A stretch of 64,000 bases of DNA from Bacteriovoracaceae bacterium. GTDB lineage: Bacteria > Bdellovibrionota > Bacteriovoracia > Bacteriovoracales > Bacteriovoracaceae. The position numbers are program-made. The stretch spans positions 1 through 64,000 of the forward strand of contig JABIHA010000121.1 in assembly GCA_018649885.1 (NCBI GenBank), given 5' to 3'. Below are positions 48,001 through 54,000 of this stretch, piece by piece. Each line of letters begins with the position of its first letter. Positions within the stretch are counted from its first letter, which is position 1.

Positions 48001-51000
48001 CGTAATCTTTGTCGGCATAGGAAAGTGAGGAGGAGGAGGCCCAAAGGTTAAACCCCAGGGGAGACTCAAAGTGATAGGCCACACCTTTATTCTTAAATAT
48101 TTATCTAGCTTAAAAAACTTAGCAATAGATTTGCCATCGTTTAAAACTAAAAATGTGGTGTGGGCCCCAGCACTGACTACAGGAATAATGGGTACACCGT
48201 GGTTTAAAGCTAGACGAATATAGCCCATTCGACCGCCAAAGATCACCCGGTTTCTCTCTTTGTATGACCTCATGGCATCCATGTCTCCACCAGGGTAGAC
48301 GATCACATTTTTTCCATTTTCAAATAGTATCTTGGCATTTTCGTGGCTGGCCCTAATGGCGCCAAGTGGAACGGCCAAATGGTGAAGAATGGGAATGGAG
48401 ATGGCAGTAGTATGGGCCAAACCATAGGGAAGCTTTTCTAGCCCAAATTTATCAATAACCGCTGCGCCAAAAATAAAAGAATCTGGAGTCAGCATTCCTG
48501 AATTATGATTACCTACAAATAAAGATGAGTCTTTAGGAATATTGTCTAACCCCCTAACCTCTGGTTTGAAAAACTTATCCATGAAAGGTCTTATTTTAAT
48601 TAATAATTTGTGGATAAACTCAGGGTCTCTATTTTCAATGGAATCAATGTCGTATTTTAATTTTACTAAGTTTTTTATTTTCAACTATCTACTCACAGGT
48701 TCCAATCATAATAACACTTCCAAATTTTCCCCTGGCAAAAAATCCTTTTCGCCTGTGAACCTGTTGGTATTTTGGTTTTTTACAATACTGAGAAACAATT
48801 CGGTGGCAATCTCTCTCATTCATCCGCCCCAATGGCTGATAACCGCCACGCCCGTTTCCTGCTCTCACACTACACTCTTTTGTTTCCTTACCATTTTGAT
48901 CAAATGTTGGTTTTATAGGCTCCTTCTTTTTACTACAACTAATGGGTAGCAGGCAAAAGACCAAAAAAGGAATAAGAGATTTCATATACATACTGATATC
49001 ATAACTTAATTTAGTCATTTAGCACCTGTTAAACACACCCATCCTGACTAATTTGCTCTTGTTATTTAAAAATTAACTTCATCTTTGCCGAAAGGTATCC
49101 ATGAGAAAAATAGGGACTAGGTTATGGCACTAAAGGTTAAAGACATAGTGGATTTCAACAACCAAAAAGAGGTTCAGTTTGTTGAATCCAGTGATTCGAT
49201 TCATAGTGTTGCCAAAAAAATGCTGGAGCTCCACATGGGTTTTTTTCTCGTAAAATCTGGTGGTGAATTCATCGGACTGATCTCAGAGCGAGACTTAATC
49301 TACAAGGTTTTGGCCACAGCCACTCCTCCAGAAAAACTCGTTATTTCAGATATTATGACCACAGAAATAGTTTGGGCCAATTCAGCAGATGATTTAAAAT
49401 CAGCATTATCTAAACTTAAGGGAGGCAATTTTCGGCATTTGCCCATAAAGAATGAAAAAAATGAGCCCATAGCAGTCATCTCAGAAAGAGATATTACAAG
49501 CTTTCTCTTAAATCGAATTTCTTAAATCCTAATAAGACTCAGTTTGTCACAATAAGAGATCCAAAATAGAAGGCATTGGCCAATTTTGAGTGGCTAAGAT
49601 GTTAGTTTCATTATATTCTCCATAAAAGAGCGCTAGGAACTTCTATGAGCAGTAACGAAACCAATCCAAAAAGACCAAAACAAGATATCCCCTCAATTTT
49701 GGGAAGAATAAAAAGACCTAAAAAAGCAGTAGTCACTGCTGGTATGCCCTATGCAAATGGGCCACTCCATTTGGGCCACTTAGCGGGCGCATTATTACCA
49801 CCCGATATTTATTCAAGATGGTTAAGAATGTTAATCGGTCCAGAAAATGTCCTCTTTGTCTGTGGTACAGATGACCACGGCTCAACCAGCGAAGTGGCTG
49901 CTTTAAAGGCAGGTAAATCAAACCGAGAATTTATTGACTCAATTCATACGGGCCAAAAAAAGACACTTGAAAGATACCATCTGGGGCTAGATATTTACTC
50001 AGGGACATCAAAAGAAGAAAATTTTGAAGAACATAAACAGTACTGCCAAAACTTTCTAAGAAAACTGCACCACAATCAAATGCTCGATAAAAAGTCGTCC
50101 AACCAGTGGTTTGATCCTGAGCTGAAATTATTTTTACCCGATAGATATGTTCACGGAACCTGTCCCAATGAAAACTGTCAAAGCCCTCGCGCCTATAGTG
50201 ATGAATGCGAAGTCTGCGGCACTCAGTACGATCCTGAAAAATTAATTAATCCCAAAAGTACTATTAGTGACTCTACTCCCGTTTTAAAGGAGACAGATCA
50301 CTGGTGGCTCAATATGTGGAAAGTCAGTGATCAACTCAAGCAGTGGATTGATGGCAAACAAAAAACGTGGAGAAAGGCAGTATTTAGTGAAGTTTCTGGC
50401 ACTGTTGCCCCTTGTATTGTTTTCTCTAATACCCATGAACCAAAATTCAAAGAACTCAGAGAATCACTTCCCAAACACAAAAGTCGATATGCTCCAGGAA
50501 AAAAGGTTGTGGTCCAGTTCAACTCACTTGCCGATCTTGAAACTGGTCGCAAAGCCATCGCAGAGCAAGGCATTGAAAGTGAGCTGATGGATGCTTGGGC
50601 ACACAGATCAATTACAAGAGACGTGTCTTGGGGAATTCCACTTCCGACTGAAAACGATCAAACAATGGAAGGTAAGACCCTCTATGTCTGGCCTGAGTCT
50701 CTCATTGCCCCCATATCATTTACAAAGGCGGCCTTAAAAAAGCAGGGAAAATCTCCTGAACAGTACAAAGATTTTTGGTGTGACCCTGAGGCCAATATTT
50801 ATCAATTTCTAGGGCAAGACAATGTCTTTTTCTATGTGCTAATGCAAGGGGCCTTGTGGATTGGAACCCAAGAGGAAACAAATCGTCTGCCCATAAAAGG
50901 GGAGCTTCAATTAACAGATATCTTTAGCTGCCACCTACTTCAAGTTGATGGTCAAAAGATGAGTAAATCAACAGGAAATTTTTATTCTGGAGACCAGCTA

Positions 51001-54000
51001 CTCGACGAGTACGGACATAGTGCTGATCAAATTAGATACTTCTTGGCATTACTCAGCTTACCAGAGAAGCCATCAAACTTTGATTTTGAAGCACTTAAAA
51101 AAAGAAATGATTTCCTGGCCGGTCCTCTCAATGCTGCCTTTGAAAAACCTATTTCAGCATGCCATTCTAAGTTTGGCTCAATTATCCCTTCAGGAAAGTT
51201 AATTGGAAAAACAGAAAAAGAAACACTTAAAATAGTTCAAATGTATGCTCGCTCTATGCCAAAAGCAGAATATTCAACACTTTTATTTGCCATAGAAAAT
51301 TACGCCAGGATTATTAACGGTCTTTTTACTATGTACAAGCCACACGACGATCGTTTCCCGGAAGAGGAAAGAGCAGATGCACTTTACTCCTGCTTTTATA
51401 TTCTAAAAAATCTTATGATTATGCTTCATCCCTTTGTCCCATCGACAATGGATAAGCTGCGCCAAACTCTTAATTTAGATGAAGATATCTTTAGAATAGA
51501 TCAACTTGGTGTTCCGATGCCAGAAAATCATCAAATTAATGAGCAGTTAGAGTACTTTCCGCCAACTAATAAAGAGGAAAGCTAAGCTCACTAAGTTCAA
51601 CTAAATACCTTGTGTCTAATTTCGAGATTTTTTTTTACACTTGCTGGAAATTTACAAATTCCTCTTCCGCAATCTATTAAAATCGCATTCAAAAACTGGC
51701 GCTTATCTTGCTTTTAATAAGGGTACCAGGCCAAGGAATGGTCAAAGTTCAAACAAGGATAGTTTATGAAGGTTCTCCTACTCGTACTACTTTTCATTAC
51801 ATTTATTACTACTGGTTGCAATGACAGTGACTCTGCAAGTGCAGGATCTTCTGCAAGTGGTGACGTACAAGACCCCCAGCCAATACTTCCGGGAGATGAG
51901 GGATTTTGTGATGAACAGTGTCAGTTTAAAGAGGACCTTTTGAGTAAGCACAACCAGTTAAGAGAGATGGTAAGTAATGGAGAGATTGAAGGCCTTCCTG
52001 TTAGCACCAATCAACTCCCCGAATTAGAGTGGGATGAAAACTTAGCGACTGTCGCCGCTAACTTTATTCAAAATTGTGGCTCTGGCCATGACGACCAAAG
52101 AACCGAATTAACCCGTCAGCTAGGTTCAGATTATAGCTATGTGGGTGAGAATATTTTTATCACAACTAATATAAATGACTCAAATCAAGTATACACAGAT
52201 GGTATTCAATCTTGGTTTGATGAGCATCAAAACTATAACTACAATAATATCTCATGTGAGGGGGGCGTTTGTGGTCACTTCACTCAAGTTATCTGGGAGA
52301 ATACAACAAAAGTAGGATGCGCAAAAATCATTTGCCAAGGTATTGAAGATTCTACTAATGGCCCATCGGCACTTCTTGTTTGTAACTATGGAGAAGGTGG
52401 GAATTACGCCAATCAAAACCCTTATAGTTCAGAAGGCAATATTGGTCCTCAGACTCCACCACCAGTGGAGGAAAATGATGAATTCGACATGGTTTGGGAA
52501 AATGGACATTTTATTGCAAGTGATCTGATCTTTGACGACAAAAAGATTCTAGTCGAAGGAGATTTAATTATTGAAGAGCATGGTGAAGTTCTATTCAGAG
52601 GCTGCAAACTTGAAGTAGAGGGAGACCTTATACTTGAGAGAAATTCTGTCACCTTATTTGAAGAATGTGATATTGAAATCAACGGAAAATTAAAGATCCA
52701 AGATACGGCCATCTCTGAATTCAATGGGAGTTACATGGACGTGTCAGGAAGAATAGAAATAAAAGATGATGCAGAGGTGAGCTTTGAAGGAGTAGAATTA
52801 TATCTAACCAATGTCTTAAAAATCAGTAACAGATCAGAAGTTTACATTTACGGTTCATTATTTGAAATCGTTTCACCAAATCCAGCTGACAAGAGTAAAA
52901 TTGACCATCAAGCGAGAGTTGAAATCACAGACAGCGAGCTAACAGGCAACACTCAAGGCGGTCATACTCTTGAGATCAAAAGAAATGCCTACTTAGGACT
53001 AACCGATACGTACCATGATTTTAATTTAGTGATAAAAAATGATGCAACAGTTTTCTATGGAGATGATAATTAAGAAATAAAAAAAGGGAGCTTGGTAGCT
53101 CCCTTTTTTATCAGAAATATATTATTAAATTATTCAGCTACTATTCCGTTACAAACATTACCTAAACATTCAACATCTTCTTCTAAAGAAAGATCCGCAG
53201 GCTCAAATGCGATAGTTTCATCGTATTCACTTTCATTAACTGATGGACACGATTGTTGGGCCAAAACTCTTAGATTACTTTCAAAGGCCATTAAATTTCG
53301 TGGTTCATTTCCAGCTCTTTTATATCCAAATCCAGCTAACCTATCTTCAAATGCTTCATATGAAACAGAAATAAAGGCGACTCCTCTACAACTAGCACTT
53401 ATTTCAGGATCTATATTAGCAGCTACTAAACCAGCCTCTTCAGCAAACTCTCCTGCAATTTTTTCAACCCACAATCCTAATTCTGCTAACTCTTTTCCAC
53501 CAATGTCATTTTTAATATATCTTTGGGTGTCCAGTATAAGAGAATCGATCTCTCTAAGCATATACATTCTATTTTCATAGGTATTATCGACTCTTTCAGC
53601 TGAGCCAAGAATCTTTTCATGGTGAATTTCTCCAACAGCGCTCATTCTGGGATCTTCGCTTTGACAAAAAACATTTAAAGAAAATACACAAATAACCAGT
53701 AAAATTAAATAATTTCTCATTTCAAACCTCTCTTTACTCTCAATATTTATACCTAAATAAGAGCAAGAGTGGTGCCAGGTTTAAAGCAAATTTTCAAAAG
53801 GTTGAAGCGGCCTAAATCGCTACTTTTAAGTAATGTCTATAAGTTCACCCTATTTAAATAAAAATCATTGGGCCTTTTTTAGCTTAAATGTCTGCTCAAT
53901 TTGGGCCTTAAATATGCTGGGATCTGTTGTAGGTCTTAGACAAACACCCTTTTCACAGACATAAGCAGTGCTCTTTCCCTCCATGGCAAATTTCCCACCA

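Follow-up and report, generated by a model that had tools for sequence, protein, structure and literature searches.

The window analyzed here, a stretch of 64,000 nucleotides from a Bacteriovoracaceae genome, carries a gene for a class Ia enzyme resembling methionyl-tRNA synthetase (MetRS) which, judging from sequence comparisons, is probably a direct glutaminyl-tRNA synthetase (GlnRS). The initial annotation had proposed this paralog as a third route to Gln-tRNA(Gln), a GlnRS derived from MetRS, and the proposal is now supported by four independent added lines that agree with one another: replacement of glnS in situ, loss of a glutamyl-tRNA synthetase (GluRS) signature, changes in the amino acid pocket and anticodon-binding domain, and a sister clade in Firmicutes. 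The rebuilt pocket, the exclusion of known enzymes, and the shared operon slot point to a probable GlnRS, for which we infer both the amino acid (glutamine) and the tRNA (tRNA-Gln). In the proposed mechanism, an enzyme of the MetRS lineage would have been re-specified for direct Gln-tRNA(Gln) synthesis. Free glutamine would be bound in the rebuilt methionine pocket, Gln-AMP would be formed via the intact HIGH and KMSKS motifs, and glutamine would be passed to tRNA-Gln(UUG), itself recognized by a helical anticodon-binding domain with the CAU-reading residues replaced. The paralog would be the sole Gln-tRNA(Gln) route in the source genome and in most Bacteriovoracaceae, so that the resident GluRS may have turned specific for tRNA-Glu, or been free to do so. 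If true, this would be a previously unrecognized kind of GlnRS.

A MetRS-like paralog and the glutamine-charging inventory of its genome

The source assembly is 92.4% complete, with 3.9% contamination and 151 contigs. Profile searches agreed with the initial annotation that the genome encodes neither GlnRS nor GatCAB or GatDE: PF03950, the GlnRS C-domain, had 0 matches, gatB matches reached no more than 20.7 bits (cut-off 314.8), the top gatA score (119 bits against a cut-off of 481) belonged to a generic amidase, and no GatE was found in the source genome. PF00749 matched only GluRS (contig C62) and a 325-aa GluQRS-like frame (C82). The tRNA-Gln(UUG) was found again at C27:2880-2954 on the minus strand, and the ordinary MetRS said to accompany the paralog was recovered at C72:43300 with 473 bits, above the cut-off. 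AsnRS is present in the source genome, making GatCAB unnecessary for asparagine, and three CAU tRNAs were found. The second MetRS-like enzyme, annotated as having 646 residues, is indeed encoded by an intact ORF, while the opposite strand of the same interval contains stops throughout; the HIGH and KMSKS motifs and the zinc knuckle reported to be kept were all found in the translation. Residues were counted in 124 sequences of clade A, to which the window protein belongs, 13 sequences of its sister clade B, and 92 canonical MetRS, with E. coli MetRS numbering checked against the 8bru L13M/I297C chain. The features are as follows.

49645..51585, + strand: gene for the class Ia MetRS-like paralog of clade A, candidate GlnRS; intact ORF, 646 aa
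49768..49779, + strand: HIGH motif H42-L-G-H45, from the translation; H42 in 123/124 and H45 in 124/124 clade A sequences
50161..50217, + strand: zinc knuckle C173-x4-C178...C188-x2-C191 (CPNENC...CEVC) in the connective-peptide (CP) domain; C173, C178, and C188 invariant in the 35-sequence alignment A2
50383..50589, + strand: insert (residues 247-315, about 69 in all) located where the CP domain ends; the HMMER alignment to P. abyssi MetRS is interrupted here, leaving two matched parts
50689..50712, + strand: pocket motif W349-P-E-S-L-I-A-P356, against W-F-D-A-P-I-G-Y in MetRS (E. coli W253...Y260), from alignment counts
50803..50847, + strand: second pocket segment Q387-F-L-G-Q-D-N-V-F-F-Y397-V-L-M-Q401; Y397 at MetRS H301, Q401 at W305
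50956..50970, + strand: KMSKS motif K438-S442, from the translation; K438, S440, and K441 in 124/124 clade A sequences
51130..51150, + strand: anticodon-domain helix N496-A-A-F-E-K-P502, against G-N-x-x-(N/H)-R in MetRS, from alignment counts
51334..51354, + strand: anticodon-domain loop Y564-K-P-H-D-D-R570; H567 at the position of the C34-stacking MetRS Trp (E. coli W461)

The window protein matched the MetRS-like Pfam domain tRNA-synt_1g (PF09334) with 315 bits, and the same scan detected neither PF00749 nor PF03950 in it. It scored under the curated cut-offs of the NCBIfam MetRS equivalog models (the MetRS family is represented by TIGR00398 and NF001100), with 371.8 for one model (cut-off 587) and 287.9 for another (cut-off 336.35). 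Its AF2 model has a pLDDT of 92.3, and P. abyssi MetRS was the top PDB match of this predicted structure (Foldseek TM 0.76), with TM values of 0.72 to 0.76 against the P. abyssi, human, and E. coli enzymes. The insert at 247-315 has no counterpart in solved MetRS and is predicted to form a small beta-alpha-beta-beta-alpha module (E257-261, H262-274, E278-283, E287-292, H295-307); it is conserved across clades A and B, P256, L275, P276, and F292 being nearly invariant. At the KMSKS position, clade B reads K-A-S-S-S. The source databases name the window protein methionine--tRNA ligase. The neighbors of the gene, encoding a CBS protein and a CAP-domain protein, are uninformative on function.

Amino acid pocket and anticodon-binding domain

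According to the initial annotation, other, invariant residues occupy the methionine pocket and the site of the anticodon-reading tryptophan, which was confirmed over the 124 clade A sequences. P350, S352, A355, and P356 occur in 124/124 clade A and 13/13 clade B sequences, at positions where canonical MetRS has F (82/92), A (91/92), G (85/92), and Y (92/92), respectively. Y397 is equally universal in both clades (124/124 and 13/13) where all 92 MetRS have H, and Q401, found in 124/124 clade A sequences, takes the place of W (50) or F (38) among the 92. Relative to MetRS, the pocket swaps are Y260P, H301Y, A256S, W305Q, and L13M. MetRS residues D52, Y15, and W253, which hold the amino acid backbone, are retained as D76, Y36, and W349, invariant in clade A. 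In the anticodon helix, the N (89/92) and R (91/92) of MetRS correspond to A497 (123/124) and K501 (122/124) in clade A, and clade B reads N-R-x-x-R-(T/S). A W follows the conserved P in 85/92 MetRS but in 0/124 clade A and 0/13 clade B sequences, and P566, H567, D569, and R570 are found in 124/124 clade A members. All the anticodon-reading N, R, and W residues of MetRS are replaced in the paralog.

These substitutions bear on whether the paralog could be a second MetRS, inhibitor-resistant or dedicated to one CAU tRNA, with a distribution mirroring that of GlnRS and GatB through shared ancestry alone. Its top matches are MetRS models and structures, the database label agrees, three CAU tRNAs are available, and resistant MetRS paralogs are known (PMC5388404). 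We nevertheless regard this explanation as very unlikely, given the scores under both curated cut-offs, the replacement of Y260 and H301 (present in 92/92 MetRS) and of the anticodon-reading Trp, the exclusion seen within eight genera and repeated in another phylum, and the identity of the displaced operon gene, which is glnS and not metG. The pocket likewise speaks to a GluRS2-like role, in which tRNA-Gln would be charged with glutamate and Glu either tolerated at Gln codons or converted by an unknown enzyme. The MetRS-like PyrN-C, whose structure (PDB 9l8v) ranked 20th in the fold search, binds glutamyl-adenylate analogues according to its published description, which also gives the PyrN code as SFVALRR with Arg425 critical (bioRxiv 10.1101/2025.08.22.671884). 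However, the pocket of the paralog has acquired S, Y, and Q, not the Arg residues with which PyrN binds the carboxylate, a proteome-wide change from Gln to Glu in 150 species is implausible, and the paralog replaces GlnRS in situ, all of which leave such a role with very little likelihood.

Alternatively, the protein could be a stand-alone enzyme that activates an amino acid for secondary metabolism, in the manner of the cupin/MetRS-like hydrazine synthetases, the known widespread MetRS paralog, which has been re-specified for many amino acids; this family is tied strictly to a cupin and a lysine N6-monooxygenase (PMC2922099). Neither of these adjoins the window gene or its Ruminococcus albus relative, the similarity to PyrN-C (E 1.8e-10, HMMER) is far below that to P. 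abyssi MetRS (E 1.5e-75), the anticodon-binding domain is conserved, and the distribution is of a housekeeping type, making this possibility extremely improbable.

Distribution, operon position, and GluRS signature

Among the 237 Bacteriovoracaceae genomes, E-values of paralog matches were bimodal, with E<=1e-60 in 153 and E<1e-120 in 147; the six weaker matches comprise three contig-end fragments (61-67% identity), a sister form in G113 and G114 (33% identical), and G213. The GlnRS C-domain was detected in 49/237 genomes and canonical GatB in 25/237, reproducing the counts reported earlier (147, 49, and 25). The overlaps also held, with the 153 genomes as well: no genome combines paralog and GlnRS or GlnRS and GatB, and a single one (G021) combines paralog and GatB. 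All three are absent from 11/237 genomes, each 66-92% complete, and three single-contig genomes of 98-99% completeness (G032, G177, and G200) carry the paralog and lack GlnRS and GatB. Switches inside genera, as originally claimed, were recovered as mixed states within eight of them (g4, g57, g5, g22, g27, g28, g35, and g62), and the paralog alternates with GatB inside g4 and g57. Kin genomes are non-independent samples in these counts. The paralog is always additional to a normal MetRS, TIGR00398 matching 235/237 genomes, 224 of them above the cut-off. The 660-aa protein described as GatB_N-like in G121, G234, and G235 proved instead to be GatE (477-478 bits, cut-off 456) followed by GatD, a complete GatDE whose sequences were read in G121 and G234, and gatE in all three is part of a bacterial tRNA-Gln-gatE-gatD cassette. 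Since the G234 and G235 proteins are GatE, an amidotransferase is present in 3/153 paralog genomes (GatB in G021, GatDE in G234 and G235) and not in one.

The glnS gene adjoins gltX in 8/10 GlnRS genomes checked. In G065 (genus g22) and G036 (genus g5), the gene immediately downstream of gltX is the paralog, in the slot that glnS occupies in their congeners G064, G059, G033, and G035, and the four genes upstream of this slot are orthologous to those of the congeners (71-93% identity). The paralog has replaced glnS in situ in these two genera. Across clade A, gltX linkage is uncommon: 2/10 genomes checked have the two genes adjoining, and 0/30 loci with 1.5-kb flanks do.

A GluRS residue set, R125/L145/R171/V173/Q361, was present in 10/10 GatB-only genomes checked (7 genera), while R125 or R171 occurred in 0/26 other GluRS. 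K361 was found in 9/10 GlnRS genomes and 11/14 clade A paralog genomes; the GluRS of the window's own genome has D at 361, not K, and Q361 occurs in G116 (paralog) and G115 (GlnRS). The signature switches within g4 and g57, yet the GluRS tree groups each genus. This GatB-linked signature is lost alike in GlnRS and paralog genomes, which for the latter argues against ongoing synthesis of Glu-tRNA-Gln.

Phyletic exclusion and operon position establish functional linkage rather than catalysis, and the paralog might be needed in the absence of GlnRS and GatCAB without glutaminylating, for example as a tRNA-Gln-binding partner, with an unrecognized GlnRS or amidotransferase, such as the generic 119-bit amidase of the source genome, doing the chemistry. 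We consider this unlikely: HIGH, KMSKS, and the backbone-binding residues are invariant or nearly so in 124 sequences, as fits an active adenylating enzyme, the GatB-linked GluRS signature has been lost, and the PF00749 enzymes of the source genome are limited to GluRS and the GluQRS-like frame. Enzymes of the HUP fold class include some that adenylate and amidate carboxylates, and a new tRNA-dependent amidating enzyme could take Glu-tRNA-Gln made by GluRS, activate its side-chain carboxylate as an adenylate, and use ammonia for the amidation; linkage to gltX, in 27/80 clade B loci and in G065 and G036 of clade A, would suit such a pathway. Against it, the Pfam scan and AF2 model of the window protein revealed no glutaminase or ammonia-channel domain, D76, Y36, and W349, which hold a free alpha-amino acid, are invariant, the signature of all GatB-dependent GluRS is lost, and glnS, which encodes a direct Gln-tRNA maker, is likewise gltX-linked. 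Amidation is therefore quite unlikely, and direct glutaminylation by the paralog is the reading that we favor.

Comparison with known systems and a sister clade in Firmicutes

The paralog resembles MetRS in its fold, HIGH and KMSKS motifs, CP-domain zinc knuckle, helical anticodon-binding domain, and backbone residues (D52/Y15/W253), but differs in its changed pocket and anticodon residues, 69-residue insert, sub-cut-off scores, and separate clade. With GlnRS (class Ib; PF00749 plus PF03950), it would have an identical product, and it shares the gltX-adjacent slot, the accompanying GluRS signature, and mutual exclusion, GlnRS occurring in 0/153 clade A and 0/64 clade B carriers. It is unrelated to GlnRS in sequence beyond the class I Rossmann core and has a helical rather than beta-barrel anticodon-binding domain. 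GlnRS genomes keep G73 as the tRNA-Gln discriminator (14/15), whereas paralog genomes have A73 (47) or G73 (21); the underlying pattern search, which matched only 106/237 genomes, revealed no paralog-specific identity change in tRNA-Gln. GatCAB or GatDE with a nondiscriminating GluRS reaches the same end product, and GatB alternates with the paralog in g4 and g57, but transamidation is indirect and requires Glu-tRNA-Gln, and the GluRS of GatB-only genomes keeps the residue set that paralog genomes have lost. Class I and class II LysRS, unrelated families with one amino acid and complementary phyletic distributions, are a precedent for two families sharing an amino acid; they differ in class, while the paralog and GlnRS are both class I (subclasses Ia and Ib). 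The hydrazine synthetases PyrN, Spb40, and Tri28 are the structural precedent for a re-specified MetRS scaffold, with Glu, Asp, and Asn among their amino acids, although they transfer the amino acid to hydroxylamine and not to tRNA, are fused to or located beside a cupin and an N-hydroxylase, carry KFSTG where the paralog has KMSKS, and are only distantly similar to it.

Clades A and B together split from 31 MetRS with an SH-aLRT of 100. In this tree the paralog falls in an old MetRS-like clade of its own and did not arise by recent duplication of the resident MetRS; since the tree is unrooted, its derivation from MetRS is a step that we infer. Clade B comprises at least 595 stretches in genome_contigs, mainly from Oscillospiraceae and Ruminococcus, and shares the pocket and anticodon-Trp changes of clade A. 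In the same family sample, GlnRS was found in 0/64 clade B carriers versus 34/109 non-carriers, and GlnRS and GatB were both absent from 24/64 carriers, among them Ruminococcus albus 8, versus 4/109 non-carriers; GatB was present in the other 40/64. No T-box was found at 18 clade B loci, nor any tRNA-Gln near the paralog gene. The gltX gene lies within 3 kb of the clade B gene in 27/80 loci, in several arrangements, and a canonical MetRS alongside clade B was sighted incidentally in G294.

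The MetRS-like protein and the glutamine routes of its genome

The way in which Gln-tRNA(Gln) is formed is the standard example of a choice between two routes, and surveys presuppose one known glutamine route per genome. In an excerpt of one paper, all bacteria are distributed over five GlnRS/gatCAB groups, each having at least one of the two (PMC3927822), and a passage from another states that transamidation is used by all prokaryotes without GlnRS (PMC5388404). Profile searches of the genome under study (151 contigs, completeness of 92.4%, contamination of 3.9%) reproduced the claim of the initial annotation that it has neither GlnRS nor GatCAB, yet has a tRNA-Gln(UUG) and an ordinary MetRS. 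No GlnRS C-domain was found in this genome. Likewise, no GatB or GatE was detected, the top match (20.7 bits) lying in a YqeY-like region, and no GatA, for which the top match was a generic amidase (119 bits against a cut-off of 481). Only two genes contain PF00749, i.e., GluRS (contig C62; L002:1495-2919) and a 325-aa GluQRS-like frame (contig C82). AsnRS is present, and the 35 tRNAs include a single tRNA-Gln(UUG). Two genes of the window are considered here:

49645-51585, + strand: intact ORF of 646 codons encoding the MetRS-like paralog; the other strand is closed
53865-56246, - strand: 792-aa protein in which a thioredoxin-like domain, DUF255, scores 238 bits and glycosyl-hydrolase-like matches are weak

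According to Pfam, the neighbours of the paralog in the window are CBS, CAP, acyltransferase, and DUF255 proteins, which are uninformative on function; the 792-aa DUF255 protein appears unconnected with the paralog.

Pfam places the paralog in tRNA-synt_1g (315 bits) and detects in it neither of the canonical GlnRS domains, PF00749 and PF03950. The protein falls below the cut-offs of both NF001100 (371.8 against 587) and TIGR00398 (287.9 against 336.35), in contrast to the resident MetRS on contig C72, which scores 473 bits with TIGR00398 and 442 bits with PF09334. Its nearest solved relatives are the MetRS of Pyrococcus abyssi (E value of 1.5e-75) and that of E. coli (about 1e-49), and in both alignments query residues 247-315 are left unmatched between two aligned stretches. 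An AlphaFold2 model built from 35 relatives (pLDDT of 92.3, pTM of 0.91) matches MetRS structures with TM values of 0.72-0.76, and residues 247-315 are predicted in it to fold as a small beta-alpha-beta-beta-alpha module. The catalytic motifs HLGH (residues 42-45) and KMSKS (residues 438-442) are invariant in clade A, which comprises the paralog and its close orthologs in Bacteriovoracaceae, and a four-cysteine knuckle is located at residues 173-191.

Relatives, methionine pocket, and anticodon domain

Beyond clade A, a homologue search against 1.84 billion representatives retrieved three relatives at 45-47% identity, all from metagenome contigs (P0123-P0125, clade A2), and a set at about 30% identity that aligns in one stretch (clade B, mostly Firmicutes). 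Clade B has in common with clade A the motifs W-P-E-S-L-x-A-P and F-Y as well as the insert (query residues 247-315), carries K-A-S-S-S in place of KMSKS, also fails the MetRS cut-offs, and is named “class I tRNA ligase family protein” by NCBI. An unrooted tree built from 54 sequences separates clades A and B jointly from 31 MetRS (SH-aLRT of 100), each of the two clades being supported at 99-100. A scan of one genome per species gave at least 595 clade-B stretches, mostly from Oscillospiraceae, Ruminococcus, Ruminiclostridium, and Erysipelotrichaceae, and the carriers include the cultured Ruminococcus albus 8 and Ruminococcus sp. YRD2003. Clade B is also carried by two Bacteriovoracaceae genomes without GlnRS and GatB (G113 and G114).

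Residue positions were numbered as in E. coli MetRS, which was verified on PDB 8bru: its title names L13M and I297C, and the aligned chain has M and C at those places. The comparison comprised 124 clade-A, 13 clade-B, and 92 canonical MetRS sequences. D52, Y15, and W253, which hold the amino-acid backbone in E. coli MetRS, are kept in all three groups. The methionine pocket residues of the E. coli enzyme, i.e., Y260, H301, A256, and W305, are not kept by clade A. Y260 and H301 are each found in 92/92 MetRS and are replaced by P and Y, respectively, in 124/124 clade-A and 13/13 clade-B sequences. A256 is changed to S, G259 to A, and F254 to P in every sequence of both clades, L13 is changed to M in all of them except one of clade B, and in place of W305 clade A has Q (124/124) and clade B has E, Q, or A. 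The readers of the CAU anticodon in E. coli MetRS, N391, R395, and W461, are found in 89, 91, and 85 of the 92 MetRS, respectively; in clade A the first two are replaced by A and K, and the W is missing. The anticodon-domain motif G-N-x-x-(N/H)-R of MetRS becomes N-A-A-F-E-K in clade A, which also lacks the Trp that follows the conserved Pro and shows an invariant K-P-H-D-D-R instead. Judging from these alignments, the enzyme retains an intact catalytic machinery but has very probably changed its specificity for the amino acid as well as for the anticodon.

In excerpts of two reports, the known “MetRS paralog” is a hydrazine synthetase linked to cupin/lysine-N6-hydroxylase (PMC2922099; bioRxiv 10.1101/2025.08.22.671884), and the literature on “MetRS-like” or “MetRS paralog” proteins found in open-access papers and bioRxiv concerns these enzymes only. 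The likeness of the cupin/MetRS-like hydrazine synthetases to the paralog lies in the MetRS scaffold, which they show to be re-specifiable, and the PyrN C-domain with a glutamyl-adenylate analogue ranked 20th in a fold search with the window protein. However, the cupin/hydroxylase context and a close similarity are missing for the paralog (E value of 1.8e-10), and Pfam identified no fused or adjacent cupin and lysine N6-hydroxylase at the two loci inspected, the window and the R. albus locus. No description of the paralog protein, or of genomes without both glutamine routes, was found in open-access papers or bioRxiv, although a paper may exist elsewhere.

Distribution of the paralog, GlnRS, and the amidotransferases

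The survey covered 237 species genomes of Bacteriovoracaceae, among which the best E values for the paralog were bimodal: it was found at E≤1e-60 in 153 genomes (E<1e-120 in 147), and the remaining genomes gave a weak cross-match of canonical MetRS or no match. GlnRS was detected in 49 genomes and canonical GatB in 25, never together (0/237). The paralog accompanies GlnRS in 0/153 genomes, GatB in a single one (G021), and GatB or GatE in 3/153, and GlnRS or GatB is present in 74 of the 84 paralog-free genomes. Apart from these three overlaps and 11 genomes with none of the three markers, all of which have a completeness of 66-92%, the paralog is present where, and only where, the other glutamine routes are absent. 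Eight genera have mixed states, the paralog alternating with GatB in g4 and g57 and with GlnRS in g5, g22, g27, g28, g35, and g62. The earlier claim that the paralog excludes GlnRS and GatB across the family and switches with them inside genera was therefore borne out. Since three single-contig genomes that are 98-99% complete (G032, G177, and G200) carry the paralog only, an assembly artifact does not account for the lack of the other routes. A role of the paralog as its genome's provider of Met-tRNA does not fit the survey: TIGR00398 matched at E≤1e-30 in 235/237 genomes and over its cut-off in 224/237, the canonical MetRS being separate, and the paralog was never the sole MetRS-like gene of a genome. 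Close homologues of the window protein bear the names Halobacteriovorax and Bacteriovorax, which assigns the family to Bacteriovoracaceae, and cultured carriers include Halobacteriovorax sp. GB3, HLS, and RT-2-4.

Clade B shows a similar exclusion of GlnRS, which was found in 0/64 distinct clade-B genomes and in 34/109 non-carriers among 121 genomes sampled from the R. albus family. GatB is present in 94/121 genomes of this sample, in 14 genomes together with GlnRS, and probably serves asparagine there; its presence in 40/64 clade-B carriers says little. Both GatB and GlnRS are absent from 24/64 carriers versus 4/109 non-carriers. These 24 include R. albus 8, YRD2003, G263, and G294, the last of which also has a separate 544-aa MetRS-like frame.

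Of the 80 clade-B loci (L060-L139), 27 have gltX, the GluRS gene, at most 3 kb away from the clade-B gene, either upstream, downstream, or on the opposite strand. At the R. albus 8 locus (L098, NZ_ADKM02000080.1), the neighbours identified by Pfam are GluRS, GH25, and an integrase. The GluRS frame there (L098:104-2086) encodes 661 aa from a GTG, with about 140 residues ahead of PF00749 that represent either an N-terminal extension or a too-early start call. No T-box at gathering score was found in 18 of the 80 clade-B loci, which gave only one TPP riboswitch and two tRNAs. In one Ruminococcus MAG, the TPP riboswitch (68 bits, L118:4996-5102) follows the clade-B gene directly on its 3′ side and is presumably that of the next gene.

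Linkage to gltX, GluRS residues, and tRNA-Gln

glnS abuts gltX in 8/10 of the GlnRS genomes whose gltX locus was fetched, and the paralog occupies the glnS slot beside gltX in two switching genera. Within g22, two genomes have gltX followed at once by glnS (G064 and G059; 563-569 aa), and G065 has gltX, 156 bp, and then a 639-aa paralog. Within g5, G033 and G035 have gltX-glnS, and G036 has gltX, 15 bp, and then a 641-aa paralog (locus L179, G036:C7:1-10000, compared with L176, L177, and L178). In both genera, the paralog replaces glnS at its own locus. Upstream of gltX, paralog and GlnRS genomes share four orthologous genes (388, 289, 142, and 158 aa) with 71-93% identity. Between G036 and G065, which is from the other genus, GluRS identity is 82%, but between G036 and its congeners G033 and G035 it is only 59-60%; gltX and the paralog therefore seem to have moved as one unit, a two-gene cassette. 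The paralog is unlinked to gltX in 8/10 clade-A genomes checked, gltX was found beside it in 0/30 clade-A loci with 1.5-kb flanks, and no glnS remnant was detected beside gltX in paralog genomes.

GluRS sequences of 36 genomes (loci L145-L174 and L181-L185, together with G000:C62 from the genome under study) were aligned and numbered according to the latter. R125, L145, R171, V173, and Q361 are common to the GluRS of 10/10 GatB-only genomes from seven genera, and R125 or R171 occurs in 0/26 other GluRS; K361 is found in 9/10 GlnRS genomes and 11/14 clade-A paralog genomes. Neither g4 nor g57 is broken up in the GluRS tree (SH-aLRT of 100 and 99, respectively), so the signature changes arose within these genera. 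At the five positions, G014 and G025 read RLRVQ versus LTHVK in G004 and LMETK in G032, and G150 and G196 read RLRVQ versus NISTY in G170. Four of the five positions are in the catalytic/CP region and not in the anticodon domain. Position 361, which we take to be that of Thermus R358 deciding discrimination against tRNA-Gln, aligns with Arg in T. maritima GluRS1 and with Gly in the T. elongatus enzyme. The five-residue signature may serve to mark non-discriminating GluRS in Bacteriovoracaceae. We interpret the pattern to mean that acceptance of tRNA-Gln by GluRS is required only where GatCAB completes the conversion, a constraint lifted alike by GlnRS and by the paralog. This equal lifting speaks in favour of a direct route and makes a hidden amidotransferase in the paralog genomes less likely.

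Genome G021 carries the paralog (C290:674-2569), GatB (C84:5816-7234), and GluRS (C366:3257-4684) on different contigs. Its GluRS is closest to those of its GatB congeners (80-82% identity), yet reads LLHVK and is already without R125, R171, and Q361. G021 may be a lineage in transition rather than a contaminated bin.

Several independent genomic lines thus support the proposal that the paralog is a GlnRS arisen from MetRS, and we infer from the genomes that it is quite probably a direct glutaminyl-tRNA synthetase of MetRS lineage. With slightly less assurance, we consider it likely that the “WPESL” MetRS-like family as a whole (clade A from Bacteriovoracaceae and clade B from Oscillospiraceae, Ruminococcus, and Erysipelotrichaceae) is a second, independently evolved GlnRS and a third route to Gln-tRNA(Gln), on which most Bacteriovoracaceae and many gut and rumen Firmicutes, R. 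albus 8 among them, would depend exclusively. If this is true, the textbook rule that every organism uses GlnRS or Glu-tRNA(Gln) amidotransferase is wrong. With a MetRS-lineage GlnRS, a canonical amino acid would gain a new family of synthetases, and it would be clear that a class Ia scaffold is adaptable, within translation, to a polar amide side chain and another anticodon. In hundreds of genomes, the annotation “methionine--tRNA ligase” or “class I tRNA ligase family protein” would then need correction, and code engineering would gain an orthogonal glutamine-charging pair. Since cultured carriers exist, the proposal is directly testable.

A change of tRNA-Gln identity tied to the paralog was considered and rejected, as the discriminator base shows no paralog-specific signature. 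G73 is found in 14/15 GlnRS genomes, A73 and G73 in 47 and 21 paralog genomes, and A73 and G73 in 6 and 13 GatB genomes, 131 of the 237 genomes having fitted neither pattern in this comparison. What the discriminator reflects is therefore that GlnRS is missing, not that the paralog is there. No tRNA-Gln adjoins the gene in the 80 clade-B or 30 clade-A loci. Bacterial tRNA-Gln(UUG)-gatE-gatD cassettes, with the tRNA-Gln gene directly upstream, were observed at three sites:

L186 (G234:C7:49000-53000)
L187 (G121:C175:13300-17300)
G235:C12:85109-86060

GatE of the cassettes scores 477-478 bits (cut-off of 456) and GatD 448-509 bits (cut-off of 310). GatDE is described as exclusively archaeal in an excerpt of an earlier paper (PMC2811023). 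The cassette coexists with GlnRS in G121 and with the paralog in G234 and G235, the GluRS of both of which carries K361.
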